In this document: in pieces, positions 17,290-38,932 of the stretch
How positions within the stretch are numbered: position 1 is the first letter of the stretch
How the letters are laid out: each line of letters begins with the position of its first letter
Assembly (NCBI GenBank): GCA_051008975.1
Contig: JBPCXA010000144.1
Coordinates: 1 to 46,325 of the forward strand
Length of the DNA stretch: 46,325 bases
Source of the DNA: Gammaproteobacteria bacterium
GTDB taxonomy: Bacteria > Pseudomonadota > Gammaproteobacteria > Tethybacterales > Persebacteraceae
Reading direction: 5' to 3'
Translations under genes and position numbers: made by a program
Notes under the pieces: generated by a model
Told to the model about the DNA's origin: nothing
The model's database searches: none
What the model saw: only the letters and a program-made list of their open reading frames with translations

Positions 17290-17295
17290 TCTTCC

Positions 17296-21101: not shown

Positions 21102-21298
21102 GCGCCTTGGTCGGCATGTTGGCCATGTTGATGCGCACGATCATCATGAAACCGAATGGCAAATCACGCGAGCAGGAAATGTTGCGCCGCGATATCGATA
21201 ATATCCAATCGATCGTCTCAGAGATGCGTCGCGACATTGATCGGCTCTACACCCGACGCGAAATCGAGGAGCGGATTCAAAGAGAAAAACAGCAATGA
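21056..21298 (+). CDS. Membrane-anchored coiled-coil protein (80 aa)
   Basis: One TM (AVFGTLGALVGMLAMLM) followed by a charged helix. The stop overlaps the helicase ATG. Confidence 0.5.
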   Translation: METNDSIWRAVFGTLGALVGMLAMLMRTIIMKPNGKSREQEMLRRDIDNIQSIVSEMRRDIDRLYTRREIEERIQREKQQ

Positions 21299-22887
21299 AG
21301 GAATATCATGTCTATGGCCCGCCGGGCACCGGCAAGACTCGGCGCGCCGAACAGGATGTCGTCAGGGCGGCCGAGAAATTCGGCAAGGACCAGGTTTTGG
21401 TGACTGCATTTACGCGCGCCGCTGCCGCCGAGCTGATCGATCGCGATCTCGATATTCCGAAACGCAACGTCGGCACCTTGCATTCGATTTGTTACCGCGC
21501 GCTTGACCGGCCGATCCTGGCGGAAACCAAGACTGCCGAATTCAACGAGCTGCACCCTAACTTCGCGGTCGCCAGCGCCAAGGTCAATGTCGAGGAAGGC
21601 AAGATCGAGGCAGGTCAAACGAACGGCCAGAGCAATCTACTGCAGACCTATCAGCTGCATCGTGCCCGCATGACGCCGCGCGATGCCTGGCCGAGCGAGG
21701 CGGTCAGAAATTTCGCAAAACTGTGGGAAAGCTGGAAAAAGGATACCGGCTATTATGATTTCACCGACCTCATTCAAGCGGCACTTGACACGATGCCCTT
21801 CGCCCCGGGTCGGCCCAAGGTCGGCATTGTCGACGAGGCCCAGGATCTCACCGCGCTGGAATGTGCCCTTGTGCGGTCCTGGGGCATCGCCATGGAATAC
21901 CTCATCCTCATCGGCGACGACGACCAGTGCATCTTCGAATTTACAGGTGCTTCGGCCGCCAACATGGTCGGAGCGGCTTTGCCGCGAGAGCACAAACGGT
22001 TCCTGACCAAATCCCACAGGTTGCCGCGGAGGATATGGGAGTATGCGCGGGCGATCAGCGCCAGGATCGAACAGCGCCAGGAAAAGGAGTTCGAGCACAA
22101 TGGCACGGAAGGATCAGTCCATACCGCTTCATGCGGCGATTGGCGCCGGCCTGAAGCCATTGCCGACGACATGGAAGCTCGACTGGAGATTGGTGAACGG
22201 ATCATGGTGCTGGGTTCATGTGGTTACATGTTGGTGCCCCTTATCCGGGAGCTTCGTCGAAGAGGTCTTCCCTTCCACAATCCGTACCGGGTGACCCGCG
22301 GGGACTGGAACCCGATCAATCGCGCTGCCGGTTCGACCATGAACCGGATCGCCGCGTTTCTCAACGGCGCCGAGAACGTGGTGCCGAGCTGGAGCGTCGG
22401 CCAAATGGTCATGTGGACCGATCTGGTCAAGGCCAAGCATCTCCTGAAGCACGGGGGCAAGAAACGATTGGAAAAAATGAACGACGAATCGCCGGCGAGA
22501 CTGCTTGGCTATCATGACTGGCTGGAGCTGTTCGAAGAGGACCCATGGGGCTGGGATCCCTGCACATTGGACTGGCTCAAGGAGAATGCCTTGCCGAGCA
22601 AGCTGAAACAGATGGAATACCCGATGACCGTGGTCGAGAAGCATGGCCTGCAGACCCTGCTCGACCGGCCGAGGATCGTGGTTGGCACGATACACAGCGT
22701 TAAGGGCGGCGAGGCCGATACGGTCTACGTTTTCCCGGATCTTTCGACCCAGGGCAGCCTGCGTGCGCTCGATGCCGAGAGCGATCACACCATGCGGCTG
22801 TTCTATGTCGCCGCCAGCCGGGCTCGGCATAACCTGGTACTGTGCAGGCCGGCCGGGCCTTACTTCGCGAGGTTGCCTGATGCGTAA
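21295..22887 (+). CDS. UvrD/Rep-like superfamily-1 DNA helicase
   Basis: GPPGTGKT (Walker A), GIVDEAQDL, LIGDDDQCIFEFTGAS, SHRLP, TIHSVKGGEADTVYVF, YVAASRARHNLVL. Confidence 0.85.
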   Translation: MKEYHVYGPPGTGKTRRAEQDVVRAAEKFGKDQVLVTAFTRAAAAELIDRDLDIPKRNVGTLHSICYRALDRPILAETKTAEFNELHPNFAVASAKVNVEEGKIEAGQTNGQSNLLQTYQLHRARMTPRDAWPSEAVRNFAKLWESWKKDTGYYDFTDLIQAALDTMPFAPGRPKVGIVDEAQDLTALECALVRSWGIAMEYLILIGDDDQCIFEFTGASAANMVGAALPREHKRFLTKSHRLPRRIWEYARAISARIEQRQEKEFEHNGTEGSVHTASCGDWRRPEAIADDMEARLEIGERIMVLGSCGYMLVPLIRELRRRGLPFHNPYRVTRGDWNPINRAAGSTMNRIAAFLNGAENVVPSWSVGQMVMWTDLVKAKHLLKHGGKKRLEKMNDESPARLLGYHDWLELFEEDPWGWDPCTLDWLKENALPSKLKQMEYPMTVVEKHGLQTLLDRPRIVVGTIHSVKGGEADTVYVFPDLSTQGSLRALDAESDHTMRLFYVAASRARHNLVLCRPAGPYFARLPDA

Positions 22888-23455
22888 ACCAGTCGACGCG
22901 AGACCCAACTTCGGCCAGATCACCGGATCGAATCCGCGCGCGATCATACAATCGAGCAATCAGGTCGTGGCCAACATCACCAGACTGCTGCGCCGATACG
23001 GACGGCATATCAATCGCAACCCGGCGGGCCAGACGTTGGTCCTGGTGCATCGCAACGGAGCCAATCAGGCATCGATTGCGGGGACACCGACCCTGGTGAA
23101 TTACACAACGGCGGCGATCGACAACAACAACAGCTGGTTCGATCTGACGAGCGAGCGTTTCATCCCCAAGGTCGAAGGCTGGTACCTGCTGGCGGCGGCG
23201 GCCAAGTTCCAAACCCCGGGAGACGGTATAGTGATTCAGCAGCGACTGACCAAGAACGGCTCTACGGTGGTCGCTATTGCAGACGCAGTCCCCGGAGCCG
23301 GCGGTGTCAGTGTGTCGTGTCCGGCATGCCTGGTGATGGTCGAATTCAACGGCTCGACCGACTATGTCGAGCATTATGTCTTACAGAGCGGCGGCGGCGG
23401 TACACTACAAGGCGCCAGCGAATCGACCAGATTCATGGCTTGGCGGCTGCTCTAA
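22880..23455 (+). CDS. Beta-rich protein (191 aa), possibly a jelly-roll / C1q-like fold
   Basis: GAGG RBS. ATG overlaps the helicase end. F.PKVEGWYLLAAAAKF...NGS...VEFNGSTDYVEHYV pattern. The fold guess is tentative. Confidence 0.45.
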   Translation: MRKPVDARPNFGQITGSNPRAIIQSSNQVVANITRLLRRYGRHINRNPAGQTLVLVHRNGANQASIAGTPTLVNYTTAAIDNNNSWFDLTSERFIPKVEGWYLLAAAAKFQTPGDGIVIQQRLTKNGSTVVAIADAVPGAGGVSVSCPACLVMVEFNGSTDYVEHYVLQSGGGGTLQGASESTRFMAWRLL

Positions 23456-23712
23456 TGTAATACAATACGGCCCGCCCTGACCGCCGCGGTGATATAGTCG
23501 CCGGCTTGGACCAACTGAAAATCGAAATCAACCTCCTGATTCCATTGAATCGCCGATCCGCGTGCTAGATAAGCGGTATATTCGGCGGCCGACATGCTAT
23601 GGCGGCGCTGCGAGATATAACCGAGAATCTCGGCGTCGATCTGGCCATGGGAGGTCCAGGGCGCCAGCTCGTCGCCATTCCCGAAATGCGTTTGGAGCTT
23701 GACATCGGCCAT
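23452..23712 (-). CDS. Hypothetical protein (86 aa), solitary reverse-strand gene, probably leaderless
   Basis: About 80 percent G/C at third codon positions on the minus strand. Stop overlaps the stop of the convergent + gene. ATG lies inside the promoter-like inverted repeat at 23699..23747. Confidence 0.6.
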   Translation of the reverse strand: MADVKLQTHFGNGDELAPWTSHGQIDAEILGYISQRRHSMSAAEYTAYLARGSAIQWNQEVDFDFQLVQAGDYITAAVRAGRIVLH

Positions 23713-23728
23713 AAGTTATGTTTATGCT
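23699..23728 (+). promoter_or_regulatory. Sigma-70-like rightward promoter of the small-ORF operon
   Basis: TTGACA-N18-TATGCT, the same architecture as the promoter at 13024. Confidence 0.6.
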
Positions 23729-23747
23729 TAAACCAGTCGGATGTCAA
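23719..23747 (-). promoter_or_regulatory. Possible leftward promoter for the 86-aa reverse gene (would give a leaderless mRNA)
   Basis: On the minus strand: TTGACA-N17-TAAACA, then 6 nt, then the ATG. The -10 is poor (no terminal T). Confidence 0.3.
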
Positions 23748-23758
23748 GGGCAAGCTAT

Positions 23759-24181
23759 ATGAAACGCTGCATCTTCTGCGACGCTGAAATGAAGCCCACT
23801 TGGCGAATCTGCCAATCGTGCTTCAAGGTACAGCCGCGGCACTGCCGCGAATGCGGCACCGAAATTCATGAAACGCGGAGCTTGCAAGCGGAGACCTGCG
23901 GGCGAAATTGCATGCAACTGATACAGAACCGGCGCCGGCAGCGCGGCGCGGTTCTCTACGACATGTTCATGACCATGCGTTTTGAACGCGACAAAGCGGC
24001 ACAAGAGCAATTATGGTCGATCATGTGTCGCCAAGCCGCGCACTGGCGCGAGCAAGACGAAAAAGAGATTCACAAGGCACGATCATGGGGCGATCCGATG
24101 CCCTATGTCCAGCAGAACCCGTGGCTGAGACAGAGCACGACCAGTCACAGGATTAAGATAGGCGCATCGGCGCTGCGGTAA
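23759..24181 (+). CDS. Multi-CxxC zinc-finger protein (140 aa)
   Basis: CIFC...CQSC...CREC...CGRNC motifs. ATG 23759 is about 24 nt downstream of the predicted transcription start. An alternative ATG is at 23741. Confidence 0.6.
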   Translation: MKRCIFCDAEMKPTWRICQSCFKVQPRHCRECGTEIHETRSLQAETCGRNCMQLIQNRRRQRGAVLYDMFMTMRFERDKAAQEQLWSIMCRQAAHWREQDEKEIHKARSWGDPMPYVQQNPWLRQSTTSHRIKIGASALR

Positions 24182-24253
24182 GGAATTGCAACACCCTCCC
24201 CTTCCCCTGGCTGCTCGGCAGAGTGTGGTGGGTGGTGCCGTGATGGAGGAAAT

Positions 24254-24610
24254 ATGATGCAAAAGTATGGGCACAGGGCCAACGATGCTGCCCGGCAAAA
24301 CGACCCGAACAACAATTTTTTGTGTCAGGTCTGCGGCGAAAATGCGGGCTTCAACTGGAGTGATCTACACGGTGAGGGCATGTGTAATCGCTGCGGCATA
24401 CCATATAATTTAAAAGAAAAACCATTCAAAATCAATATTAATGACGAATGGGTACCTGTTTTCAAAAAATATTGGAAAGAGACCCAAGATTACATCGGTG
24501 CTGGTCAAATTTTGATTGAGCGAGATTACCCGGAATGCGTCAAAGGGATGCAACGATTTTATGCATGGCTTGGTGAACATCCTGAACACAAGCCAGAAGA
24601 ACAACCATGA
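24254..24610 (+). CDS. Zinc-ribbon protein (118 aa)
   Basis: GGAGGA RBS (the second ATG at 24257 is better spaced). CQVCG...CNRCG motif. Confidence 0.65.
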   Translation: MMQKYGHRANDAARQNDPNNNFLCQVCGENAGFNWSDLHGEGMCNRCGIPYNLKEKPFKININDEWVPVFKKYWKETQDYIGAGQILIERDYPECVKGMQRFYAWLGEHPEHKPEEQP

Positions 24611-24656
24611 CCCCCGACCAGGAACATTCTCGCTGGGCCGATAGAACGGAGATGAG

Positions 24657-25088
24657 ATGAGCGAAGTGAGCCCAAAAATGTTACAGGCATGTGCAAGGGC
24701 ATGGCGAAAGCGCGTCGAAACCGCAGAAGCCGAGGCCGCCAAGCTCCGGGCAGCGCTAGAAGCAGTGAATGCTGCAACCTACTCCCATGTTGACGGGCGC
24801 GACTTACTGGCCGAACTGCATCCGCGCAAGCAGATCGATATCGTGCGACGGCTAGACGCTAAAGAAACATGGTTCGAGGGTGATTGGCTTTCACGCCTGT
24901 ATGAGGCCATGAAGGTTGCCCGCCAAGCCCTCTCCGGCTCACCCGACCCCGTAGCTGAAGCAGAGCGGGCGGTGGTCGAAGCGGTGGATGCTGATTGGCA
25001 CCGGCCAACGGCGATAAGACTACAAGCCCTGCTGAAAATCTACGGCAACCTCGCCAAGCTCCAGGGCAAGGGGGAGAGTGATGACTAG
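24657..25088 (+). CDS. Hypothetical helical protein (143 aa)
   Basis: GGAGATGAG upstream of the ATG. Uninterrupted ORF. Confidence 0.6.
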   Translation: MSEVSPKMLQACARAWRKRVETAEAEAAKLRAALEAVNAATYSHVDGRDLLAELHPRKQIDIVRRLDAKETWFEGDWLSRLYEAMKVARQALSGSPDPVAEAERAVVEAVDADWHRPTAIRLQALLKIYGNLAKLQGKGESDD

Positions 25089-25278
25089 CCCAACTACGCC
25101 CGATGACATACGGGCTGCTGGATGGATGGTCGCGATCCACAACGACTATCATCAAGACGGCCAACTACGGACTTTTTGGCTTTTCACAAAAGCTGCATGG
25201 GCTGTGAAAGGCGAAGGACAGACCGATCGCGAGGCGCTTGATGTGGTTCGTAGCCAACTTGGGTTGCCTTCGCCATGA
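25081..25278 (+). CDS. Hypothetical small protein (65 aa)
   Basis: ATG 25081 (ORF-track GTG at 25078). Overlaps the upstream stop by 8 nt. GWMVAIHNDY...TFWLF...KGEGQTD pattern. Confidence 0.55.
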   Translation: MTSPTTPDDIRAAGWMVAIHNDYHQDGQLRTFWLFTKAAWAVKGEGQTDREALDVVRSQLGLPSP

Positions 25279-25703
25279 CCACAGCCCAACTCCGGGAGCT
25301 GATCGCCGAGATCGAGGCGCTGGGCGACAAGCCGCACACGCGGGAGCTGTCGGATCGGGTGTTGCTGGCTATTGGGTGGCAGAAGTCAACGAGCTTACGC
25401 GGGGCTGAAACTGCTCCGGCTGTCTTTTGGCGCAGCCCAGATGGCTCAACAGCGGGTTGGTCAATTAAATGCCCCGACCCCCTCGCCAACCTCCAGGACG
25501 CCACACTGACGGTGCCGGAGGGAACCACCGATATTTTGTTGAAATCGCAACTTATCCCTGCCCAACGTCATGATGTTGTTCTCTGGTCGCCTGTTGAAGG
25601 TGGCCATGCGATGTACATGGCCACAGCTTCAAACCCCGCCCGCGCCCTCAGCCTCACAAGCCTGAAAGCGGCGCTGGCAAAGCGGGAGGCGGAGGATGGC
25701 TGA
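25275..25703 (+). CDS. Hypothetical protein (142 aa) ending EAEDG
   Basis: ATGA coupling. Its 3' end is part of a repeated junction sequence. Confidence 0.6.
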   Translation: MTTAQLRELIAEIEALGDKPHTRELSDRVLLAIGWQKSTSLRGAETAPAVFWRSPDGSTAGWSIKCPDPLANLQDATLTVPEGTTDILLKSQLIPAQRHDVVLWSPVEGGHAMYMATASNPARALSLTSLKAALAKREAEDG

Positions 25704-25914
25704 GAATTTAGCGAGATGTGCCTGCGCTATTCTTCGGACAACCCGACCACTTAGCACCGACTTCCGCGAGCAGGTTGCTCAAATGGTCGAAGCCCTAGAC
25801 CAATGCATCTCTGAGCTTTCCATGGTTGAGCAGGTACACGAAGACAACGAGCAACCCTTCTATTCAAAAGGGCTCGAATTGGGGCGAAAAGCACTGGAGG
25901 CGGAGGATGGGTAA
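25696..25914 (+). CDS. Hypothetical protein (72 aa) ending EAEDG
   Basis: The start lies in the repeat GGAGGCGGAGGATGG, and the 3' end carries the second copy. Confidence 0.55.
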   Translation: MAENLARCACAILRTTRPLSTDFREQVAQMVEALDQCISELSMVEQVHEDNEQPFYSKGLELGRKALEAEDG

Positions 25915-26077
25915 TTTCAACGCAATCGTTGTATGCGACTGCGGCCACCAAGAGTTTCAGGTCGGGGTGAAAGTTGAAGGCTTCGAGAATCGTATCAAGA
26001 TGTTGGCTTGCGCTAAATGCGGCAAGGAGATGGAGGTACCATTCCAACAAGGCTCAGAAGAGACCGCCCATGAGTAG
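25907..26077 (+). CDS. Small zinc-ribbon protein (56 aa)
   Basis: ATG inside the second GGAGGCGGAGGATGG copy. CDCGH...CAKCG motif. Confidence 0.5.
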   Translation: MGNFNAIVVCDCGHQEFQVGVKVEGFENRIKMLACAKCGKEMEVPFQQGSEETAHE

Positions 26078-26330
26078 CCCAACGGCGGAAGAGCTTTCGG
26101 TCGAGCAGATGGTTCGGAACATCCTCGAAGCGCAGGGCATAGAGCAAGCTCAATCCCTTGCGTCTGGGGACATCGTCGAGGCGAGCAATTTGCTGAGTGA
26201 GTATCTGGCAGGAGTCGGAGTTGAGGCCCGCAAGGAAGAGCGAAGGGCTATCGCCAAAGAAGCAAGACGCTGGGGATTTAACTACTTCGCCCGGCACATC
26301 CGCGCCCGAGGCAATGAGGGAGAGGGTTGA
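26070..26330 (+). CDS. Hypothetical protein (86 aa)
   Basis: ATG overlaps the upstream gene by 8 nt. In frame with the ORF-track 25974..26330 tail. Confidence 0.55.
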   Translation: MSSPTAEELSVEQMVRNILEAQGIEQAQSLASGDIVEASNLLSEYLAGVGVEARKEERRAIAKEARRWGFNYFARHIRARGNEGEG

Positions 26331-26509
26331 TGGCTGAAAAGACATGCACGAACAAGACATGCACCAAAGCGCCGACCACAATACTCTTTTGGCCTGGCGC
26401 GGTACCACCGCCAGAATACTGCGATGATTGTGCAAAACACATGATGAAGGTCGCAGATACGATGGGCTGTCCGGTGCACCAACAGCCGCTGGAGGCCAAG
26501 GGAGGCTAA
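26330..26509 (+). CDS. Small Cys-containing protein (59 aa)
   Basis: TGATG coupling (ORF-track TTG start at 26327). CTNKTC...CDDC...C motif. Confidence 0.5.
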   Translation: MAEKTCTNKTCTKAPTTILFWPGAVPPPEYCDDCAKHMMKVADTMGCPVHQQPLEAKGG

Positions 26510-26570
26510 CCATGGTCATGGACGGGAAGGACCGGCTTACGAAACCAAAACAAATGATGGAGGAAAGACG

Positions 26571-27014
26571 ATGACCTATCTTCGCCTGACACTGATTCTG
26601 CTGCTGACGATGTCGCTCACACCGGTCGCATGGGCCGCATGCGAAATCGTGCCTGCCGGCCTCTATCAACTCTACGTTCAGGACGGCTTTACCAGGTGCA
26701 CAGTCGAGGTCCGGGTCGACGGGACAATTCGCAAGCAGCGAAGCTTTGACGTACCTTGCCGTGGCTCACAGGTCAACGGTCCGATAACCGGCGGCAGGCT
26801 GACCCTGTTCGAACCGCGCGGCAACCCGGCGGGCTTGGGTCGCTGCCTGATGGACGGCGTGATCAAGGTAAACCAGAGCGGCCGCATCGTGCGCATTCAC
26901 ATTTTTCAAGCCAATGCGACCAGCGTCGAGCGCGACAGTCTGGGCCTGCTTCGGGTCAACGGCTGGACCGGCTGGCTGAACAGCGGCCGGCTGTTCACTA
27001 TGATGCGGTTCTAG
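26571..27014 (+). CDS. Secreted protein with cleavable signal peptide (147 aa, 4 Cys)
   Basis: GGAGGAAAG RBS. The N-terminus MTYLRLTLILLLTMSLTPVAWA/A fits a Sec signal peptide with an AxA cleavage site. Confidence 0.7.
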   Translation: MTYLRLTLILLLTMSLTPVAWAACEIVPAGLYQLYVQDGFTRCTVEVRVDGTIRKQRSFDVPCRGSQVNGPITGGRLTLFEPRGNPAGLGRCLMDGVIKVNQSGRIVRIHIFQANATSVERDSLGLLRVNGWTGWLNSGRLFTMMRF

Positions 27015-27027
27015 CGTTCAAGACGAC

Positions 27028-27225
27028 GTGGCGCGGTTCCTGACGATCGTAGCAATCGCCGCCGTCCTCACCGGGGCCGGCTTCGCCTTCAGCTGCCGGT
27101 CACCGATCTTCGCCGGCGGCCGGTTGCTGTGCTGCTGCACCCAGATAGATGGCACGCTCTGCTGCCGTGGACAGTCCTACTGCTCGGGGATTGTTCCAGG
27201 CTGTCTCTGCACGGCTAAGGGGTAG
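27028..27225 (+). CDS. Cys-rich small membrane/secreted peptide (65 aa, 9 Cys), GTG start
   Basis: More than 80 percent G/C at third codon positions. N-terminal hydrophobic helix (FLTIVAIAAVLTGAGFAF) followed by CCC, CC, C, C.C. No convincing RBS. Confidence 0.45.
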   Translation: MARFLTIVAIAAVLTGAGFAFSCRSPIFAGGRLLCCCTQIDGTLCCRGQSYCSGIVPGCLCTAKG

Positions 27226-27682
27226 CGACGATGACCGTCAGCTGGCCTTCGGGATTGATGTTGGTCCCATCGGACAGCTGAAAGGTGCAGCTGCCGCCGG
27301 GTCCGGTGTATTCCATCCCGTTATGGGTCCCGGCATCGCAGATCACTTCCACGGTCAAGGGGTCGCCGTTGACCTCATAAGCGCCCGAGAGGTCGCGCAC
27401 ATTGCAGACAGTGGGCGTATCGGCCACCACGGTACATGCGATTGCGGAATTGGCCATGCCGGGAGCGAAATCGATCAGAGCCGCCGTGGGGATCGGCAGG
27501 CTCGCTGCAGGCGCGGGCGCAGTCTCGAGCTCCGTCACCCGAACCGTCAGAGCATCGAAGGCCGTCTGAAGATCGGTGATCTTGAGGTTGAGCTCGGCGA
27601 TCTCCTGCTCCGGCGTGGCAAAGACCTGCCCGTGGGCGGGAAAGGCGAGCAGCAAAAGCAGGCATAAAACCGGGATTCGCAT
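27215..27682 (-). CDS. Secreted coiled-coil plus beta-domain protein (155 aa)
   Basis: ATG 27682 lies 8 nt after GGAG. Signal peptide MRIPVLCLLLLLAFPAHG/Q, then a heptad helix (EIAELNLKITDLQTAFDALTVRVTELE), then a Cys-containing beta region. Confidence 0.65.
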   Translation of the reverse strand: MRIPVLCLLLLLAFPAHGQVFATPEQEIAELNLKITDLQTAFDALTVRVTELETAPAPAASLPIPTAALIDFAPGMANSAIACTVVADTPTVCNVRDLSGAYEVNGDPLTVEVICDAGTHNGMEYTGPGGSCTFQLSDGTNINPEGQLTVIVATP

Positions 27683-27686
27683 GGGG

Positions 27687-28019
27687 TTACTCCACAACAA
27701 CAGTTAGACCATAGCGCCGCGCAAGCGTTTCCGGCACACAGGCATAGAACATGCCATCCTGCACCCGCATATCCTTGAGGCGGCCCCAGGCCGCCAGATC
27801 GATGGTACAACCGAGCCTGGTGACGATCTCCGCCTCGGCGTCGTTAACCTCTTCGGCCTTGGCGATCGCGGCGTCCTTGTAGGTTGTCAGATCCGCGCAG
27901 CCCGTTAGAAGCGCCCAGGCGACCAAAAGAACGGCCCCACCGCCGGTCGGAACAGCGGTGGGGCCTGAGCAAGCATGACTCGAAGATCGAGCTGACCGTC
28001 GCACCAATGAAGACGCCAT
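27687..28019 (-). CDS. Lipoprotein (110 aa)
   Basis: ATG 28019 is preceded by AGGAGTGAAGG. The lipobox LLTGC follows a hydrophobic stretch (AVLLVAWALLTG/C). Confidence 0.65.
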   Translation of the reverse strand: MASSLVRRSARSSSHACSGPTAVPTGGGAVLLVAWALLTGCADLTTYKDAAIAKAEEVNDAEAEIVTRLGCTIDLAAWGRLKDMRVQDGMFYACVPETLARRYGLTVVVE

Positions 28020-28083
28020 CCGACCTTCACTCCTGGCTAAGAGCCGCCACGGGCTTATCACAGGACCGCCGCAAGCGCAAGCA

Positions 28084-28206
28084 TCAGCCAAAGGCGACGA
28101 GAGCCGCCACGATGACCAAAAAGGCGATGACCATGACCAGCCCGGCCCAGATCAGGCAACGTAGCAGGAAACCGAGCAGAGCCGCCAGCAAGACTGCTCT
28201 CGTCAT
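28084..28206 (-). CDS. Tiny single-pass membrane peptide (40 aa), not in the ORF track
   Basis: ATG 28206 overlaps the upstream stop (ATGA). Product MTRAVLLAALLGFLLRCLIWAGLVMVIAFLVIVAALVAFG is almost entirely hydrophobic. Confidence 0.5.
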   Translation of the reverse strand: MTRAVLLAALLGFLLRCLIWAGLVMVIAFLVIVAALVAFG

Positions 28207-28442
28207 CTATCGGCGTTCGATAAGGCGGAACCGCGGTCTGTGCTGACTCTGACAGCGCTCGGCTTGAACACACTCGACGCCTTCAAGAGCGAGCGTCCGC
28301 CGATGTAGGACGTAATCGGTATGACCATCTCGCCGAGAATATCCCAGGGGATGTTGACGACATCGCTGCCGTTGACGACGATGATCAGCGCATAGAGCAA
28401 TACAGCGCCGAATTCGGAGGTTTTCAGGCCAGGCTTTTGCAT
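28203..28442 (-). CDS. Small membrane protein, holin-like by size and topology (79 aa)
   Basis: GGAG lies 7 nt before the ATG. Hydrophobic segments FGAVLLYALIIVVNG and ILGEMVIPITSYIGG, with a charged C-terminal tail. Confidence 0.55.
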   Translation of the reverse strand: MQKPGLKTSEFGAVLLYALIIVVNGSDVVNIPWDILGEMVIPITSYIGGRSLLKASSVFKPSAVRVSTDRGSALSNADR

Positions 28443-28468
28443 ATTATAACTCCAGATTATTCAGCAAT

Positions 28469-28984
28469 CTATTCACGTTGACCCAGAAGAGCCTGTTCAC
28501 GCAAGCTGTAAGCATAAACGCGGCCGGCGAACACCGGATCGCTCGTCACCAGCTCGATCGCCGCCATCAAGGCTCCGAGAGCGGAATCCGTCAATGTCGC
28601 CTCATAGGTGGCGCCGCTGTCACGCCCGCCAACACTCTCATATCGCAGCACGTGCCCATCATCGCCAGACACCGGTTCGCCGGCCAGGGTACCGAGCTTG
28701 GCGGCGGTTCGCTGACCATATCTCAGCAACGGACCACCGTCGCAGTGATCGAAGACCGCCGAGGGTGGAATATTACAAAGTGCTACAAGCGCGTGCAGCG
28801 TCGAATCTCCGAGCGGCGCCTGGTACAGCACATTGCGCCGGCCGCGCAACGCAGGCCCGATAAAATAAAGGCCGATCGAGGCAATCGTGAGCCCCGATGA
28901 GGTCCGGGAGAGAATCGGACCGACGACGCCGAACGCCGACAGCAGCTTGAGTGGGCCGCGCCGGCCCTTGCGTGAGAGTTTCAT
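28469..28984 (-). CDS. Membrane-associated protein of unknown function (171 aa); first gene of the reverse cassette
   Basis: ATG 28984 after AAGGG (ORF-track TTG start at 29020). Basic N-terminus followed by two Gly/Ser-rich weakly hydrophobic segments. The C-terminal 110 aa contain DHCDGG and GDDGHVLRY. Confidence 0.55.
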   Translation of the reverse strand: MKLSRKGRRGPLKLLSAFGVVGPILSRTSSGLTIASIGLYFIGPALRGRRNVLYQAPLGDSTLHALVALCNIPPSAVFDHCDGGPLLRYGQRTAAKLGTLAGEPVSGDDGHVLRYESVGGRDSGATYEATLTDSALGALMAAIELVTSDPVFAGRVYAYSLREQALLGQRE

Positions 28985-29012
28985 GATTTGCCCTTGTTGC
29001 TCCGACGAAGCA

Positions 29013-29041
29013 ATTATCAAAAATTTTGGACCCGAGGTCTA
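29013..29041 (-). promoter_or_regulatory. Candidate leftward promoter of the reverse-strand membrane cassette
   Basis: On the minus strand: TAGACC-N17-GATAAT. The spacer and -35 are covered by repeat copy 1. Confidence 0.4.
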
Positions 29042-29085
29042 GGACTTCCGTATCGCGGGGCGAAAATTTTGGACCCGGAGCCTAG
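29020..29085. promoter_or_regulatory. Two 23-nt direct repeats (operator-like) in the divergent control region
   Basis: AAAATTTTGGACCCGAGGTCTAG (29020..29042) and AAAATTTTGGACCCGGAGCCTAG (29063..29085). 20/23 identical, 43 bp apart. Confidence 0.7.
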
Positions 29086-29225
29086 TGGTTCGCGACATAA
29101 CAACAATGAAGATTGTGATAATCGAAACCGGCGATCGCCTTGCACAAGCGCAGGCACGCGCCTGGGCGCGTTCCTCTTGACGGCCGCCGAGCCGAGCGAC
29201 CGCACTTAACATATGAAATATTATC

Positions 29226-29253
29226 TTGACCAGGAACGGCATTTATGCATAAT
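29226..29253 (+). promoter_or_regulatory. Sigma-70-like rightward promoter of the DUF932/pentapeptide operon
   Basis: TTGACC-N16-CATAAT, about 45 nt upstream of ATG 29298. Confidence 0.5.
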
Positions 29254-29297
29254 GGCAGTGCGGCCGAACCGGCCGCGAGCAAGCAAGGAGTCGGACC

Positions 29298-29489
29298 ATG
29301 AAAATCATCCTAGCAGTTGTCGGAACTTTGGCACTTATCGGGCACTTGTGGGTTGTCGGCAATGGAGTCGCCTATGAAGCCTATGAAAGCATTGCCTATG
29401 TAAGGGGATATCTCGGTTATTTCATAGCCACAGCGGCGGCTTTCATAGCCGGTGCGGTCGCTATGTTTCTTGCGACCCCGACAGAATGA
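29298..29489 (+). CDS. Two-TM small membrane protein (63 aa)
   Basis: AAGGAG RBS. IILAVVGTLALIGHLWVV and FIATAAAFIAGAVAMFLA helices. Confidence 0.65.
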   Translation: MKIILAVVGTLALIGHLWVVGNGVAYEAYESIAYVRGYLGYFIATAAAFIAGAVAMFLATPTE

Positions 29490-29570
29490 CCCAGCGGGAG
29501 CGACCGGCCGGCCCGGCCGGCCCGGCCGTTTCCGGTGCGCCACTGCACCAAACCAAAGGAGTAAGCAATC

Positions 29571-30845
29571 ATGACAACCGAAATCACGTTGAACCCGAAC
29601 GAGTACCAGGCGACCGAAAACGGCGCCTTCAAGGTCGGCAATCTCCATGCCGGGGAAGCCCGCATGGAAGTCTCTACCGCTTGGATGAACCGGCCGGATG
29701 ACGAGCGCTTTTGCTCGCTCGAAGATCTGCACCAGGCGACCAAGGCCAGATACGAGGCGAGCCGCGAATTGCGAATCGACAATCGCCAGGTCGAAATCGT
29801 CACCAATAAGAACCCCGGGACCATCGCCGAGACCAAGCGAATCGAATTCGGCCTGCCATCGGGCGACCTGGTAACACCAAGCCACTGGTCGTTCGGTCAG
29901 ACGGCGACCCTGGCCGGCGCCCCGCCGTCCTACCTCAGGACCTTGCCGGCGCCGATCGTCAGCGATGCGCTGACCTGGGGCTTGAGACGCAACCGGGAGG
30001 TCGAGCAAATCAAGGCTTATTATCGGCCGACTGCGAGATCACCGCAGCAAATGGTGACATCGATTCCGGTGCCTAGCCAGCTACACGCCATGACGGGGCC
30101 GGACTACGGCCGGATCCCGGACTTCGAAATCGTCCGCTCCGTCATCGACATCAACCAGCGTCCCGGCTCGGCCTGGAAGGTGCCCGGAGTGATGGATTGG
30201 CGGTCCCATGTCTACGATCCCCACCATCCGGTCACCAAGGAGACGACCACGCTTTTCGCATCGGACCGCGATGTCTTCATGTTCCTGGTCGACGATACGC
30301 GCCCGATATCGGTCGGCAAGCTTCCCGACGGCTCGGATGATCTCATGTTCCGCGGCTTCTATATCCGCAATTCCGAGATGGGCAAATCGTCGCTGGAGCT
30401 GGCGACCATGTATCTCCGGGCGGTATGCTGCAATCGTATCTTGTGGGGCGTCGAACAATTCCGCACCTTCAGGATGCGCCACAGCAAGTACGCGCCTGAT
30501 CGGTGGATCGACTCGATGGTACCTGCCCTCCGGTCCTATTCGGAGCGCTCAGCGGTCACTTTTCAGCAGGCGGTCGACGAGGCCAAGGCGGCCAAGGTGG
30601 CCCAGGATGATGAAGAGGCGCTGGCATGGCTGCGTGACAAAGGCCTGAACCGCAAGCGGGCGGCCGAGATCCTGACAACGGTCGAGCGTGAGGAGGGGCA
30701 TCCCGCGCGCTCGCTGTGGGACATGGCCCAGGGTGCAACGGCACTGGCGCGCGATATCCCGCACCAGGATACGCGCCTGGAGCTGGAAAGCCAGGCGGGC
30801 GCATGGCTTGCCGTGATCAAGACGCCGGAGTATGCTCGCGTCTGA
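29571..30845 (+). CDS. DUF932-family protein (phage/plasmid-like, 424 aa)
   Basis: AAGGAG RBS. LFASDRDVFMFLVD...FRGFYIRNSEMGKSSLELATMYLRAVCCNRILWG matches my recollection of the DUF932 core. Confidence 0.7.
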   Translation: MTTEITLNPNEYQATENGAFKVGNLHAGEARMEVSTAWMNRPDDERFCSLEDLHQATKARYEASRELRIDNRQVEIVTNKNPGTIAETKRIEFGLPSGDLVTPSHWSFGQTATLAGAPPSYLRTLPAPIVSDALTWGLRRNREVEQIKAYYRPTARSPQQMVTSIPVPSQLHAMTGPDYGRIPDFEIVRSVIDINQRPGSAWKVPGVMDWRSHVYDPHHPVTKETTTLFASDRDVFMFLVDDTRPISVGKLPDGSDDLMFRGFYIRNSEMGKSSLELATMYLRAVCCNRILWGVEQFRTFRMRHSKYAPDRWIDSMVPALRSYSERSAVTFQQAVDEAKAAKVAQDDEEALAWLRDKGLNRKRAAEILTTVEREEGHPARSLWDMAQGATALARDIPHQDTRLELESQAGAWLAVIKTPEYARV

Positions 30846-30867
30846 TATCTCCCATATCTCCGAACCT

Positions 30868-30897
30868 GGGGCGTCCTTCGCGGCGCCCCTTTTCTTT
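30868..30897 (+). terminator. Rho-independent terminator after the DUF932 gene
   Basis: GGGGCGTC/GGCGCCCC stem with a 6-nt loop, followed by TTTTCTTT. Confidence 0.65.
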
Positions 30898-30971
30898 GGC
30901 GATTCATCATTGATTAATAAACGGTATTTATGGTAATGGTGACTCTCCAGCAAGCATGAAAGGACAAGGTT

Positions 30972-31418
30972 ATGAAAAGTGGAAAGTATCAAATTGGGCC
31001 CGGAGCCGACTTAGGCGGAGCCGACTTAGGCGGAGCCAACTTGCGCGAAGCCGACTTGCGCGGAGCCAACTTGCGCGGAGCCGACTTGAATGGAGCCGAC
31101 TTGGGCGCAGCCGACTTGAATGGAGCCGACTTGCGCAGAGCCAACTTGGGCGGAGCCGACTTGAATGGAGCCGACTTGCGTAGAGCCTACTTGGGCGCAG
31201 CCGACTTGATCGATGCTGGCCAAGACCAGCGCGGGCATAGGCTGATCGCTGTCAAACACGACATCGAACCGATGATCACTGCTGGCTGTCGATGGCTGTC
31301 GTTGAGCGAGGCCATCCAATGGTGGTCGCAGACTAACAAATCGGCGGAATGTCTGGCAAAAGTCAGATTGATCGAGGCCGAGGCAAAAAGACGCGGTTGG
31401 CCCGTGAAGCAAGCATGA
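30972..31418 (+). CDS. Pentapeptide-repeat protein (14 repeats) with a 70-aa non-repeat C-terminal domain
   Basis: GADLG GADLG GANLR EADLR GANLR GADLN and so on. The A(D/N)LxG repeats are unambiguous. Confidence 0.9.
   Translation: MKSGKYQIGPGADLGGADLGGANLREADLRGANLRGADLNGADLGAADLNGADLRRANLGGADLNGADLRRAYLGAADLIDAGQDQRGHRLIAVKHDIEPMITAGCRWLSLSEAIQWWSQTNKSAECLAKVRLIEAEAKRRGWPVKQA
31002..31211 (+). repeat. 14 tandem 15-bp units (consensus GGAGCCGACTTGNNN) encoding the pentapeptide repeats
   Basis: Units counted directly. The core GCCGACTTG is identical or one mismatch off in every unit. All six frames are open. Confidence 0.95.
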
Positions 31419-31432
31419 AAGGAGTCGAAGTG

Positions 31433-31813
31433 ATGCAAATCACGAAAGCAAACGTGGCGGGCGCGTTCAAACGCCTGCACAAGGAGATGGGTTGGCCGGA
31501 TATGGCGCCGGTCAAGGACGGCAAGCCAAACCCGGGCGCGATTTCATTGGTCGAGACCGGCTATTACGGCTGGTCGATCGAGCAAATCATCAACAAGAAT
31601 GGTGGCGTTAAAACGCTTTTCGGCATGCCGTCATGGCCGACCAAGCGCCAAGCATGGGAAACCATGATAGCCATGGCTCAGGCAATCGAGCACTACAAGC
31701 GCCAGCAAGTCGAGCTGGCAACGGCGGCCGATCTTGAAAGCTGTAGCAACGAAGAGCTTGAGGCGGCCGGCGCGGTATACGACCGTACGATCGGCCAAGG
31801 ACTTGAGCCATGA
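31433..31813 (+). CDS. Hypothetical protein (126 aa)
   Basis: AAAGGAG lies 8 nt before ATG 31433. An in-frame ATG at 31415 overlaps the upstream stop and is an alternative start. Confidence 0.6.
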   Translation: MQITKANVAGAFKRLHKEMGWPDMAPVKDGKPNPGAISLVETGYYGWSIEQIINKNGGVKTLFGMPSWPTKRQAWETMIAMAQAIEHYKRQQVELATAADLESCSNEELEAAGAVYDRTIGQGLEP

Positions 31814-32196
31814 GCAAAACATGTCAAACGCTCGCCCAGTTGCGCAACCATGTCTATCCGTTCCCGGTCTATGAGGCGACTTTCGCCGACGGCACGACGG
31901 GGCGCCTTTCGATCTGGCAGCAAAACGGCAAGCCCTGGAGCTGGGCACGTCACCGAAAGGTAATGGCTACGTGTTTCGGCAAGACCGTCACAAGCGGCGT
32001 TATCCACAGCAAGGGGCTAACGGCGGTCGACCCGATGGGGTCGGAGGTCGCCAAGCCCAGGCGGATGAACACGCGGACCCTGGTGCGCGACCTGGTCGCC
32101 ATGGTCGAGATCAGATCACGGCAAGGCTACCAGCCGGTGCTCGACCAGGCCGACCAAACCAGATGGAACGAAGCCAGACGGTGGGCCGGGCCATGA
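31810..32196 (+). CDS. Hypothetical protein (128 aa)
   Basis: ATGA coupling. Confidence 0.6.
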   Translation: MSKTCQTLAQLRNHVYPFPVYEATFADGTTGRLSIWQQNGKPWSWARHRKVMATCFGKTVTSGVIHSKGLTAVDPMGSEVAKPRRMNTRTLVRDLVAMVEIRSRQGYQPVLDQADQTRWNEARRWAGP

Positions 32197-32273
32197 TCGA
32201 TTGGCAGAGAATGATCGAGCTGGCAACGCTCTGCGCGCTGGTCGGAATCATGGTCGCCGTTGTGGCGGTTTGA
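32193..32273 (+). CDS. Tiny TM peptide (26 aa), not in the ORF track
   Basis: ATGA overlap with the upstream stop. Product MIDWQRMIELATLCALVGIMVAVVAV. Last ORF before the intrinsic terminator. Confidence 0.35.
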   Translation: MIDWQRMIELATLCALVGIMVAVVAV

Positions 32274-32377
32274 AGCAAGCCCAGCGGAGTGACTTGCCCA
32301 TGCCATGACGGACGATTAAACTGATCCGGCCGGCGATCCTGCCGGTAACTCCGCGCTTGGAGTAATTGCCTGAAACT

Positions 32378-32404
32378 GACCCGGTTCCGTTCCGGGTCTT
32401 TTTT
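32378..32404 (+). terminator. Rho-independent terminator
   Basis: GACCCGG-TTCCGTT-CCGGGTC (perfect 7-bp stem) followed by TTTTTT. Confidence 0.8.
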
Positions 32405-32418
32405 GTGACCGATAAGCC

Positions 32419-32447
32419 TTGCAGAATAGGGCAGCATGCCCTATATG
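32419..32447 (+). promoter_or_regulatory. Promoter of the HTH-terminated four-gene operon
   Basis: TTGCAG-N17-TATATG (or N19-TATGAT), 15 nt after the terminator T-tract. Confidence 0.55.
32427..32443. promoter_or_regulatory. Perfect palindromic operator candidate TAGGGCA-GCA-TGCCCTA
   Basis: 7-3-7 inverted repeat spanning the promoter spacer and -10. Extra TAGGGCA half-sites at 32453 and 33307, and AGGGCA at 32821. Confidence 0.7.
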
Positions 32448-32488
32448 ATGTGTAGGGCAACGAAGGCCACTTGGGAAAGGAAAATCCG

Positions 32489-32812
32489 ATGCAAGACTAC
32501 TCAGACCCAGAACGCGAGAATGATCCGACTGCGCTGCCAGACATCGAAACTTTTCAACTTACAGCGCATGAAGTGGCCGAAAGCGTAATGTATGAGGAAG
32601 AGCAGTACGAATTTCTCAAGCGCCATGAATTCCGCCTAGCTACCATGAACTCAGCAACTCGTGAAGCCATGCTTGATGCGATGATCGAAGAATTGTCCAT
32701 CAACGGCGGATGGTTTTGGCATTCATGCTTCCCCGGCTGCCTACCTGACAGTGACCCGTTCGGCCCGTTCGAGACTGAGCAAGAGGCGCTTGAAGACGCC
32801 CAAGATGTTTGA
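32489..32812 (+). CDS. Small strongly acidic protein (107 aa), first gene of the HTH-terminated operon
   Basis: ATG after GGAAAGGAAAA. Visibly Asp/Glu-rich. WFWHSCFPGCLPDSDPFGPFETEQEA motif. Confidence 0.65.
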   Translation: MQDYSDPERENDPTALPDIETFQLTAHEVAESVMYEEEQYEFLKRHEFRLATMNSATREAMLDAMIEELSINGGWFWHSCFPGCLPDSDPFGPFETEQEALEDAQDV

Positions 32813-32855
32813 TGCAGCACAGGGCAACCAAGCCCACTTGAGAAAGGAAAATCCG

Positions 32856-33296
32856 ATGGAATGGACTTATACAGGAGACGTAAACCCTGAAAATGGCGGC
32901 ATGTGGCTTAACTTCGAAGGCTGGAGCAATGGCTATGCCGACTGCATACGTATCGTTGACCTTGACAGCGCTTGCGGCTTTACCGGTGCCGTCATGATCG
33001 AGCGACTGACGATCATCCGGCCACGCAATCGAAAAGAGCTGGCCGAGATTCTCGACGTTTGCGGCATGACGACCGTGGATCTGGTCGTTGACCGCGAGCA
33101 ACGCCAGCTGATCGTCGCACAATGCTGCGAGGCCTATGGCCTTTATGACCTATGCGAGGATTTCATCGGCCCGCACCGCGAGATTTTGCAGCTTGACCCC
33201 GCCTTTGGTCTCATGGAATTCGATGGCTGGAAAGCCGACAGAGCTCAGCCGAATGGCGACATCAAGGGTTATATTGAAGCCAAATGGCTCTATTGA
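32856..33296 (+). CDS. Small acidic protein (146 aa)
   Basis: Preceded by a near-copy of the gene-1 leader (32821..32858). Confidence 0.65.
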   Translation: MEWTYTGDVNPENGGMWLNFEGWSNGYADCIRIVDLDSACGFTGAVMIERLTIIRPRNRKELAEILDVCGMTTVDLVVDREQRQLIVAQCCEAYGLYDLCEDFIGPHREILQLDPAFGLMEFDGWKADRAQPNGDIKGYIEAKWLY

Positions 33297-33343
33297 CCAA
33301 GACCACTAGGGCAATCAAGCCCGCCAGAGATGGAGGAATCGAG

Positions 33344-33523
33344 ATGGAACGCGAATTAATCAAACAGCAATATCCTGGATTTACGGTTACATGTGACAAA
33401 TGCGGTTCAGATGAAGTCTATTTGCACATGAATACGCTAGGTTGGTCGCCTGAAAGTGGAGGATGGGGTGATGTTTCGCTGAGATGTGACTGTGGAAACG
33501 CGGTAATCATCATAGAGTCATGA
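33344..33523 (+). CDS. Zinc-ribbon protein (59 aa)
   Basis: GGAGGA RBS. CDKCG...CDCG motif. Preceded by a third TAGGGCAA box. Confidence 0.55.
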   Translation: MERELIKQQYPGFTVTCDKCGSDEVYLHMNTLGWSPESGGWGDVSLRCDCGNAVIIIES

Positions 33524-33699
33524 CCCCCGCTGACCTCAAATCCGCCCGCAAGCAGCTCGGTCTAACTCAAACACAGCTGGCCGAGCGCTTGCGCATGGGA
33601 AAGAACGGCGGTCGCACCGTTCGACGGTGGGAATCGGGTGACTGCCCGATCCCGGGTCCGGTCGAGGTAGCAATAGAATTTTTGTTACCACAAAGCTGA
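33520..33699 (+). CDS. Small XRE-type helix-turn-helix protein (59 aa), not in the ORF track; candidate operon autoregulator
   Basis: ATGA overlap with the upstream stop. Product MTPADLKSARKQLGLTQTQLAERLRMGKNGGRTVRRWESG... is a canonical HTH_3 pattern. Confidence 0.7.
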   Translation: MTPADLKSARKQLGLTQTQLAERLRMGKNGGRTVRRWESGDCPIPGPVEVAIEFLLPQS

Positions 33700-33888
33700 C
33701 GGACGCGGTTTAAACTGCCCGATTCTCCGGTCCTTAGAACATGGTCTGACAAGCTGGATGGTTTTCCCCCTGGACATATCATATTCGACTGTCAGAGGCG
33801 CACAATTGGGCACACAGGGGGTTGAACGGCTACACCAGATGCCGCAGACCTGGCATAGTGCTTAGCGGCCGCTCATTTCATCCGCTTT

Positions 33889-34270
33889 CCTTATATAGGA
33901 ATCTTGTATTTTAAGATTTAAAATGCAAATACATGTATTTATCAATGATATCAATTACCTACACTTACAGTTTAAAAACGTCTGCATTTTAAATTTAACA
34001 TGCAGTTTATGGTAAGCATGCATAAGGTTTATGGTATCGAGAACCATAAACGGAGTTTATTAATTCTGCATCTTAAATTTAAATTCTACGAAAACCAATT
34101 TAGCCCGGTTTAATTAACATGCAGAAACCATAAACGTTCAAATTCTTAAACCACATGAAACACGTTAAATATATTAAATCTACTATAACCGCCTGCAAAT
34201 ATGACCATTTAATTGAGAGTCTTATAATTGGTATATGTTTGGTTTAAATTTTAAATTTTCGTTTTTTCCC
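33889..34270. promoter_or_regulatory. AT-rich iteron block (candidate origin / packaging-initiation / promoter hub)
   Basis: Striking drop in GC relative to the flanks. No ORF. Repeated TTTATGGT/ACCATAAA (x4), TTAACATGCAG (x2), TTAAATTTAA and CTGCAT-N12-ATGCAG. Confidence 0.6.
34201..34228 (+). promoter_or_regulatory. Possible terS promoter
   Basis: ATGACC-N16-TATAAT. Promoter-like hexamers are easy to find in AT-rich DNA. Confidence 0.3.
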
Positions 34271-34306
34271 ATATAGTAAGAACGGCAAAACTGTGGGGAA
34301 CGAGCG

Positions 34307-38842: not shown

Positions 38843-38873
38843 CTTTGGTTCGGGTGCTAAGCCTCCCTGTTCG

Positions 38874-38907: not shown

Positions 38908-38932
38908 TGGGGGTCTCTCTCGGAGAGCTTTC

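Follow-up and report, generated by a model that had tools for sequence, protein, structure and literature searches.

We define the "window" as the whole 46,325-bp stretch of DNA analysed here, and the "island" as positions 26571-29489 within it, where an earlier note had described eight consecutive genes for exported or membrane proteins, five of them in a reverse-strand cassette. The positions given there for the open reading frames (ORFs) were confirmed, and the ORFs are lettered A to H from left to right in Table 1. Gene calls were compared between two pipelines, Logan's and the NCBI Prokaryotic Genome Annotation Pipeline (PGAP), and coding potential was judged by a codon-usage log-odds score that was trained on 15 long plus-strand genes and compared across the six reading frames. 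A, C, F and H are called by both pipelines, D and G by both with differing starts, and in A, C, D (its core), E, F, G and H the gene's own frame scores best of the six. Neither pipeline calls B: NCBI tags 07875 and 07880 follow directly on one another, and the B sequence is absent from the protein collection. B has no ribosome-binding site, does not score best in its own frame and overlaps the 3' end of C by 11 nt. The callers and the codon scores thus point to seven credible genes (A, C, D, E, F, G and H) rather than eight.

A is the final gene in a plus-strand run of small genes, and G is the first gene of the minus-strand unit. The 40-aa peptide that the earlier note had added to the cassette is sustained by the positive codon score of E and by its ATG, which overlaps the TGA stop of F (ATGA), with one caller in support. 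Only 4 nt separate the TAA stop of D from the ATG of C, and the GGAG Shine-Dalgarno sequence of C lies within the last codons of D. Good ribosome-binding sites precede A, C, D (ATG start), F and H, and the GC content at third codon positions (GC3) of the island genes is 0.66-0.76, with H the exception at 0.48; good ribosome-binding sites (C, D from its ATG, F) and high GC3 had been claimed for the minus-strand genes and were found.

Table 1. Features of the island, of the rest of the window and of the lysis cassette in one relative (window positions unless the relative is named).
Feature	Position	Strand	Description
A	26571-27014	+	147 aa, exported; PGAP and Logan; GGAGG ribosome-binding site
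B	27028-27225	+	65-aa Cys-rich ORF, GTG start; doubtful gene
C	27215-27682	-	155 aa, exported; both callers
D	27687-28019	-	Logan: 110 aa from ATG 28019; PGAP: 79 aa from TTG 27926
E	28084-28206	-	40 aa; Logan only; positive codon score
F	28203-28442	-	79-aa small membrane protein; both callers
G	28469-28984	-	171 aa from ATG 28984, or 183 aa from TTG 29020
H	29298-29489	+	63 aa; both callers; AAGGAG ribosome-binding site
Terminator-like hairpin	27923-27965	-	perfect 13-bp stem, 11 G-C pairs, 7-nt loop, then GUUCUUUUGG
Divergent control region	28985-29297	.	313 bp between G and H
Leftward sigma-70-like promoter	29041-29013	-	TAGACC-17-GATAAT, 9/12 match
Rightward sigma-70-like promoter	29226-29253	+	TTGACC-16-CATAAT, 10/12 match
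Two 23-nt direct repeats	29020-29042 and 29063-29085		AAAATTTTGGACCCGRRGyCTAG
SU10-adaptor-like protein	2129-2917
Tail protein	3985-6381
Three large internal-type proteins	between 7068 and 12236
Helicases and primase	12.6-22.9 kb
Small terminase (TerS)	34307-34954
Large terminase (TerL)	37241-38842
Portal-like protein	43054-44865
Lysis cassette of relative L051	~11253-12929 of L051 (reverse complement)		same strand as the tail/internal-protein genes and after them

Signal and transmembrane (TM) features were judged by Kyte-Doolittle hydropathy and by eye. The secreted protein with a signal ending PVAWA/A is well borne out, in that A carries a textbook Sec signal peptide (n-region MTYLR, h-region LTLILLLTMSL, c-region TPVAWA/A; MTYLRLTLILLLTMSLTPVAWA/A) with a hydropathy peak of 1.89 over residues 6-24, followed by a mature part with four Cys. 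Around their first Cys, A (VAWAAC) and B (FAFSC) match, by eye, a loose PROSITE-style lipobox and not the strict one, and AWAC has been reported as a non-canonical lipobox of outer-membrane spanin subunits, or o-spanins (Kongari et al., PMC6139136). Because A as matured by signal peptidase I would hold four Cys, cleavage after AWA fits better than lipidation.

C, likewise described before as a secreted coiled-coil protein (AHG/Q), begins with a signal peptide made up of MR, then IPVLCLLLLLAF, then PAHG/Q (..LLLLLAFPAHG/Q), in which the h-region has 12-13 residues. Four clean heptads follow at residues 28-52 (a/d positions I28, L31, I35, L38, F42, L45, V49 and L52), and beyond the coiled coil a linker rich in Pro and Ala leads to a C-terminal domain of ~75 aa that contains four Cys. 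Structure prediction, one of the checks proposed in the earlier note, placed a helix at residues 24-54 of C with a predicted local distance difference test score (pLDDT) of 76-90 and the remainder below 50, but yielded no usable overall model: the mean pLDDT of the single-sequence AlphaFold2 models was 50 for C and 42 for G, too poor for a fold search.

The remaining products are membrane proteins of varying clarity. E is almost wholly hydrophobic (hydropathy 3.03), and H has two TM segments, as previously described. F has a strong TM segment at residues 11-29, a weaker hydrophobic stretch at about 36-52 and a hydrophilic C-terminal tail of net charge +2, so that its topology agrees with the former label "holin-like", but it matches no holin family and is holin-like in architecture only. 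The membrane association claimed for G is weak: no 19-residue Kyte-Doolittle window reaches 1.5 or more, and its very basic N-terminus is followed by two short, weakly hydrophobic Gly/Ser/Ala-rich segments (14-26 and 28-46) that are split by Arg27, with RGRR after the second. Residues 14-46 are 45% Gly/Ala/Ser/Thr, and the C-terminal part is a putative ~120-aa alpha/beta domain; PDB sequence searches gave no match for G. The statement that every gene of the island encodes a signal peptide, lipobox or TM helix is therefore to be restricted, as it applies to A, C, E, F and H, is doubtful for B, applies weakly to G and depends on the start codon for D. Cys is enriched about threefold in those parts of A, C and D that are predicted to be exported, a composition that would fit disulfide-bonded periplasmic domains.

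The clustering of envelope genes in the island is non-random. With a crude hydropathy flag, 17 of 62 genes were flagged and a run of 5 had a permutation p of 0.045. When only N-terminal signal or TM segments were counted, permutation gave p ~0.002 for a run of 5 among 10/62 and p ~0.00003 for a run of 7 among 11/62, values that make such clustering unlikely by chance.

The reading of D depends on its start. From ATG 28019, which is preceded by an AGGAG Shine-Dalgarno sequence, the protein has an n-region with three Arg, the h-region AVLLVAWALL and the lipobox LLTG/C with Ala at +2, and in a LipoSearch-like six-frame scan D was the only strong lipoprotein-signal ORF in the genome. From TTG 27926 it begins MVAWALLTGC, and judged by that sequence the 79-aa PGAP form cannot have a functional lipoprotein signal. 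The D core (27687-27926) is clearly coding (+20.5), whereas the 31 codons added by ATG 28019 score -17.35; among in-frame 31-codon windows of the 15 training genes the minimum was -16.8, and only 0.6% scored at or below -5. The GC3 of this extension is 0.40-0.47, compared with ~0.75 elsewhere, and the signal-peptide codons of A and C show no comparable drop in codon score.

A terminator-like hairpin lies within these putative signal-peptide codons, separating G-F-E from D-C, and the TTG start falls within its U-tract. Its stem is the longest among the terminator-like sites listed for 1-40000, and the region folds at -33.2 kcal/mol over 71 nt (z = -2.96). D is either a lipoprotein whose signal codons double as an intra-operon attenuator, a role that the hairpin may have, or a non-exported protein beyond a G-F-E unit that runs from promoter to terminator. 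The lipobox, the Shine-Dalgarno sequence with its ATG and the even number of Cys after the lipid Cys would favour export. The lipoprotein (LLTG/C) of the earlier note accordingly stands if ATG 28019 is used, and is opposed by the non-coding score of the added codons and the later PGAP start; the "five-gene cassette" keeps its common orientation and close spacing but is split in two by the hairpin.

Between G and H lies a divergent control region with a predicted promoter in each direction. Promoter-like matches occur at chance frequency over the part of the window scanned (1-40000), so that those in the G-H gap are only suggestive. Three 10/12 matches were found in 20001-40000 and none in 1-20000, each just upstream of a gene (23699, 29226 and 34201). 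The 23-nt repeat is unique to the control region, with 2 matches in the window against 0.34 expected; its first copy overlies the leftward promoter at the -35 hexamer and the spacer, and the pair looks like an operator. The repeats were also considered as a phage-wide promoter motif, a role that was rejected because they occur only in this gap. A perfect 7-bp hairpin (GCGGCCG-AAC-CGGCCGC, 29260-29276) lies in the H leader. No separate promoter for D-C was found, and no terminator was found between the convergent genes A and C, where the DNA is without unusual structure.

The earlier remark that the proteins look novel was strongly upheld. No match to Pfam, PHROGs, NCBIfam or PADLOC was obtained for any of the eight products, including matches to characterised exclusion proteins. 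G, C and A retrieved only themselves in a word-indexed search of 5.8 billion clustered proteins and nothing in sequence searches of PDB (nor did the 918-aa virion protein in PDB), and F and D gave no tblastn match to GenBank phages. An exhaustive HMMER search of 1.84 billion representatives yielded no credible homologue of G, the output consisting of low-complexity or repetitive matches such as 9 short stretches in a 2087-aa protein. No muralytic motif or catalytic domain was matched by G, and Pfam, PHROGs and NCBIfam held no muralytic match for G, A, C or D.

The window ends in an exact direct repeat of 127 bp (1-127 and 46199-46325), indicating that it is a complete, circularly assembled phage genome of ~46.2 kb. 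The same contig is held by NCBI within a metagenome-assembled genome named "Gammaproteobacteria bacterium" (locus tags ACR2QC_07xxx) and is also present in two Logan assemblies (SRR33949959 and SRR33949958). The phage is a very divergent tailed phage, podovirus-like: neither a near-identity nor a distant-sensitivity search matched its DNA to any of 50,697 GenBank phages, and its large terminase is at most 28% identical to that of any GenBank phage. Scans of the window detected no tRNA and no Rfam family, and profile scans of the genome found neither an integrase nor a partition system nor a CI-like repressor. In relatives the major capsid protein has ~316 aa, of which the ORF at 96-692 matches only about the final two-thirds, and the capsid gene therefore appears to cross the window ends.

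The claim that the cassette is nearly alone in opposing the direction of the genome was correct, since the only other plausible minus-strand genes are at 23452-23712 and 39771-40127. The latter has a GC3 of 0.84 and a good codon score, and shares 264 nt with the listed start of a head-protein ORF on the plus strand (39864-40496); the head protein is matched by its PHROG only from residue 72 onwards, and its true start is thus probably further downstream. From 27 to 29 kb the GC content is ~0.59-0.63, compared with 0.57-0.59 in the flanks and ~0.60 overall. Further membrane proteins are encoded outside the island at 12236-12598, 20520-21101 and 21056-21298. Those at 20520-21298, on the plus strand within the replication module, are a protein of ~193 aa in which about five segments are hydrophobic and one of 80-89 aa that combines a TM domain (TMD) with a coiled coil; they are alternative holin- or spanin-like candidates, and neither has a family match.

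Relatives were found by anchoring on TerL, which gave 2 viral and 58 metagenome loci. These loci share the terminase, portal, capsid, adaptor and tail genes at 37-78% identity, but none of the 60 holds a homologue of any of the eight island proteins, nor anything in common from the non-structural half, which marks the island as lineage-specific. In the relative IMGVR_UViG_3300028837_000761 (loci L050 and L051; TerL ~49% identical), which was readable beyond the tail genes, the 8.7 kb upstream of TerL in L050 are all plus strand. Two other anchors gave no more: the adjacent DUF932 gene led to 45 viral loci from unrelated phages, none syntenic and none with an island homologue, and the UvrD-like helicase led to no relatives. 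By these comparisons, the non-structural modules of this phage lineage are highly mosaic.

In L051 a textbook lysis cassette follows the tail genes. It encodes a 90-aa TM protein and a 142-aa NlpC/P60 protein (PDB 6b8c, E = 5e-9). Next comes a TM-plus-charged protein of 116 aa whose gene is overlapped by a lipoprotein ORF (lipobox VAGC), the two making an overlapped pair of inner-membrane (i-) and outer-membrane (o-) spanin genes, and last an 89-aa 2-TM protein. None of the proteins of this cassette has a homologue in the window, and the island proteins show no significant similarity to its spanin pair; G as a diverged NlpC/P60 protein akin to the relative's endolysin was rejected, as it shows no similarity to that protein. 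The equivalent place in the window holds only 12236-12598, which encodes 120 aa with a TMD at 14-32 and the i-spanin-like architecture CC1-PPPP-CC2 (CC, coiled coil) and is followed by a VRR-NUC-like nuclease (by eye) and then a helicase. This protein has the topology of an i-spanin but lies 15 kb from the island, and an o-spanin embedded in its gene was rejected because the six-frame lipobox scan shows no lipoprotein ORF within or after it. No endolysin, holin or spanin was found among the ~60 ORFs scanned with Pfam and/or PHROGs, so that the absence of a recognisable lysis set reported in the earlier note still holds, and the search for a canonical cassette elsewhere in the genome returned none.

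The neighbourhood to the right of the island is of early or anti-defence type. The rightward operon comprises H and a DUF932 protein (PHROG 1362, E = 2e-47, within 29571-31418) and then a terminator at 30868-30889, after which comes a pentapeptide-repeat protein whose gene is a 15-nt tandem array of 13.9 copies; a second intrinsic terminator lies at 32378. Between H and the DUF932 gene there is a CCGGCCGGC repeat of 2.8 copies, a G-C palindrome, at 29495-29528. The combination of DUF932 and pentapeptide-repeat proteins is reminiscent of anti-restriction or leading-region genes. Further right, a 58-aa helix-turn-helix (HTH) ORF (33523-33699) is matched best in PDB by Aca3, a regulator associated with anti-CRISPRs (E = 2.7e-6), and a 59-aa zinc-ribbon ORF precedes it, both lying within 33344-33699. 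In the AT-rich stretch downstream (33900-34260), CTGCATnTTAAATTTAA occurs four times where 0.07 copies would be expected, and a 10/12 sigma-70-like promoter stands immediately before the small terminase gene. The segment 33344-34260 may represent an anti-defence locus plus a late-operon control region or a packaging/replication site. The operator-like motif beside the promoter upstream of TerS was not found near the island.

The reading that we tentatively prefer is that the island is a lineage-specific, independently transcribed accessory envelope operon, serving for example in superinfection exclusion or envelope remodelling. The leftward promoter would read G, F and E, with F and E translationally coupled; the hairpin and U-tract would then end or attenuate transcription, and read-through would yield D and C at a lower level, again tightly coupled. 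D would be a small Cys-containing protein, and an outer-membrane-sorted lipoprotein if the ATG start is used, while C would be a Sec-exported coiled-coil protein with a Cys-rich C-terminal domain, and the flanking plus-strand genes A (exported) and H (two TM) would add two envelope proteins. Host RNA polymerase would transcribe the block simultaneously with the anti-defence-like operon (H, the DUF932 and pentapeptide-repeat proteins, with the Aca-like HTH protein further right), and the two 23-nt repeats would be the operator for a regulator of the leftward promoter. The products of this module, which would be independent of the virion and replication operons, would act in the inner membrane, the periplasm and the outer membrane, and might keep competing phages from entering, hide a receptor or change the envelope in some other way, like T4 Imm/Sp, T5 Llp, Cor, P22 SieA and HK97 gp15.

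Several lines of evidence point to an accessory module. A moron is defined as a gene block with its own promoter and terminator (PMC3594210), and an opposite-strand block with a promoter-like start and a terminator-like hairpin matches that definition. The control region is shared with the anti-defence-like operon and has no motif in common with the TerS promoter region. The island is missing from all 60 loci of structural relatives. Its products are all orphans, including G, the only one of enzyme size, as is common among rapidly evolving accessory or exclusion proteins and unusual for a muralytic enzyme. The Cys enrichment in A, C and D fits periplasmic domains held by disulfide bonds. The short h-region of C and its P-A-H-G/Q site suggest release into the periplasm, which is impossible for a spanin subunit. 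Also, A and H are envelope proteins on the plus strand, showing that the enrichment extends beyond one operon.

Other facts weigh against it. The products have no homology to any known exclusion or conversion protein in PHROGs, Pfam, NCBIfam or PADLOC, the GC content of the block is that of the genome, unlike classic morons, and the promoters belong to a class of match that is found at chance frequency. Morons are usually expressed from a prophage, and such expression is unsupported here because the genome scans found no lysogeny genes of the kinds named above. Five to seven envelope genes are, to our knowledge, more than any known exclusion system uses. The phage is left without identified lysis genes, and the genome's only lipoprotein-signal ORF, D, is required not to be a spanin.

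These last two points bring in a different account, a close rival that we regard as only slightly less likely, that the island is a non-canonical lysis cassette in place of the canonical one found behind the tail genes in relatives. F, alone or together with E, would serve as holin and antiholin, D as the outer-membrane spanin subunit, C as its coiled-coil partner through an uncleaved N-terminal anchor (or the distant 12236-12598 protein in its stead), and G as a membrane-tethered muralytic enzyme of signal-anchor-release (SAR) type or a lysis regulator. The complete genome has no lysis-family match in its ~60 ORFs and no homologue of the L051 cassette, at whose position it has only 12236-12598, and the block holds every topological class required for lysis of a Gram-negative host. 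Phages seldom carry lipoprotein genes, and the advice is to start from these when looking for spanins (Kongari et al., PMC6139136); D stands alone in all six frames in this respect, with an Ala at +2 consistent with outer-membrane sorting and two further Cys after the lipid Cys. It is tightly coupled to a protein of Rz-like size (C, 155 aa), both junctions of the operon (the F/E ATGA overlap and the 4-nt D-C gap) are close, and residues 14-46 of G have a SAR-like composition.

The same genes resist these roles on inspection. Spanin genes have been described in embedded, overlapped and separated architectures (PMC6139136). Here the lipoprotein gene D lies upstream of its putative partner C. The i-spanin gene comes first in all three described architectures. 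C, with its short h-region and good signal-peptidase site, is probably not anchored in the inner membrane, and the signal-peptide codons of D look non-coding and hold a terminator-like hairpin. G is without a credible homologue or muralytic motif, an orphan enzyme being unlikely, and its hydrophobic region is basic at both ends, so that the C-terminal domain may lie in the cytoplasm. The block is encoded on the opposite strand and has a sigma-70-like promoter region that is shared with the early-type region and has no motif in common with that of TerS.

A bolder form of this account, in which the island is the phage's actual lysis system built from unrecognised parts, seems to us slightly less likely again. 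From the opposite strand, G, tethered to the membrane, would degrade the wall or block its synthesis, F and E would be a holin pair, D and C would form a lipoprotein-first pair that disrupts the outer membrane, and the intra-operon terminator in the signal codons of D would set the dose of D and C, the whole having displaced the NlpC/P60-spanin cassette.

It is improbable, in our estimate, that the island is instead a composite of two unrelated insertions, a G-F-E accessory unit and a spanin-like or accessory D-C pair (possibly with 12236-12598) expressed by read-through, at a hotspot for envelope genes. The strongest hairpin of the window stands exactly between E and the coding core of D, the codon score collapses in the 150 nt between them, A and H show envelope genes gathering on the other strand irrespective of operon, and the lineage's non-structural modules are highly mosaic; yet D-C has no separate promoter that we could find, the five genes share orientation, tight spacing and similar GC3, and no homologue of either half was found elsewhere to show independent movement. 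The idea that the signal, TM and lipobox features are artefacts of translating GC-rich DNA and that several of the ORFs are not genes draws on the lack of support for B from callers or codon score, the non-coding N-terminal extension of D, the single call of E and the orphan status of all products, but it is very improbable in view of the seven genes (A, C, D core, E, F, G, H) that each score best in their own frame of six, the good ribosome-binding sites and start/stop coupling, the agreement of two independent callers on six genes, the identical block assembled from a second sequencing run (L002) and the non-random clustering.

If the island is an accessory module, it is a multi-gene, all-orphan addition to the poorly sampled exclusion and envelope-remodelling systems of uncultured Gammaproteobacteria phages, useful but not surprising. 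If it serves lysis, it would hold a new muralytic protein or lysis effector together with a spanin-like pair whose genes stand in inverted order, and would show that a canonical cassette can undergo non-orthologous displacement inside a single structural lineage, relevant to annotators of lysis genes and to those who mine lysins. Either way, this is a complete 46-kb tailed-phage genome without an endolysin recognisable by current profile libraries.

For comparison, the two-component spanins (lambda Rz/Rz1, T4 PseT.3/PseT.2) resemble D and C in pairing a small lipoprotein-signal ORF, here with Ala at +2 and extra Cys, with a protein that has an N-terminal hydrophobic segment and a coiled coil (~155 aa in C). 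Like D, the o-spanins of T4 type are not rich in proline, and their Cys are conserved (PMC6139136). The two-component spanins differ in that D comes first here, an order outside the described architectures, in the signal-peptidase-cleavable look of C and in the doubtful coding quality of the D signal region with its hairpin; sequence similarity to spanin and holin families is lacking (Pfam, PHROGs and NCBIfam), as it is to the L051 spanins. As in holin-endolysin-spanin cassettes, holin-size TM proteins (F and E) adjoin D-C, but there is no recognisable endolysin and the block is encoded on the opposite strand, within a region of early type. F has a predicted TMD and a hydrophilic tail, as a holin would, but neither an adjacent recognisable endolysin nor a holin family match. 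The arrangement of a weakly hydrophobic Gly/Ala/Ser-rich N-terminal region in G, then F with 79 aa and two hydrophobic segments, which is pinholin-like in size, recalls the SAR endolysins and pinholins (phage 21 R21/S21, P1 Lyz), whereas the soluble domain of G matches no lysozyme, amidase or peptidase family or structure, and its hydrophobic region is interrupted by Arg and has basic flanks on both sides.

Exclusion and immunity envelope proteins are often expressed from their own promoter (PMC3594210). The known exclusion proteins (T4 Imm and Sp; T5 Llp; Cor of phi80, N15 and HK022; P22 SieA; HK97 gp15) are small products of the inner membrane or periplasm, or outer-membrane lipoproteins, encoded outside the virion and replication operons, and like the island proteins are often orphan and lineage-specific; unlike the island with its five to seven genes they use one or two, they have no sequence similarity to it, and no lysogeny module was found in this genome. 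Among morons, Bor of lambda is a lipoprotein and Lom a protein of the outer membrane. The island is like these (HK97 gene 15, lambda bor and lom) in being absent from relatives, in its own promoter-like and terminator-like signals, in its opposite strand and in its envelope proteins, and unlike them in that its GC content equals that of the flanks (only the GC3 of H is atypical), it is multi-gene, a temperate lifestyle is unsupported and the promoter is a predicted one. The proteins are new in sequence but familiar in kind, as an orphan envelope module in a mosaic phage or a divergent lysis cassette.

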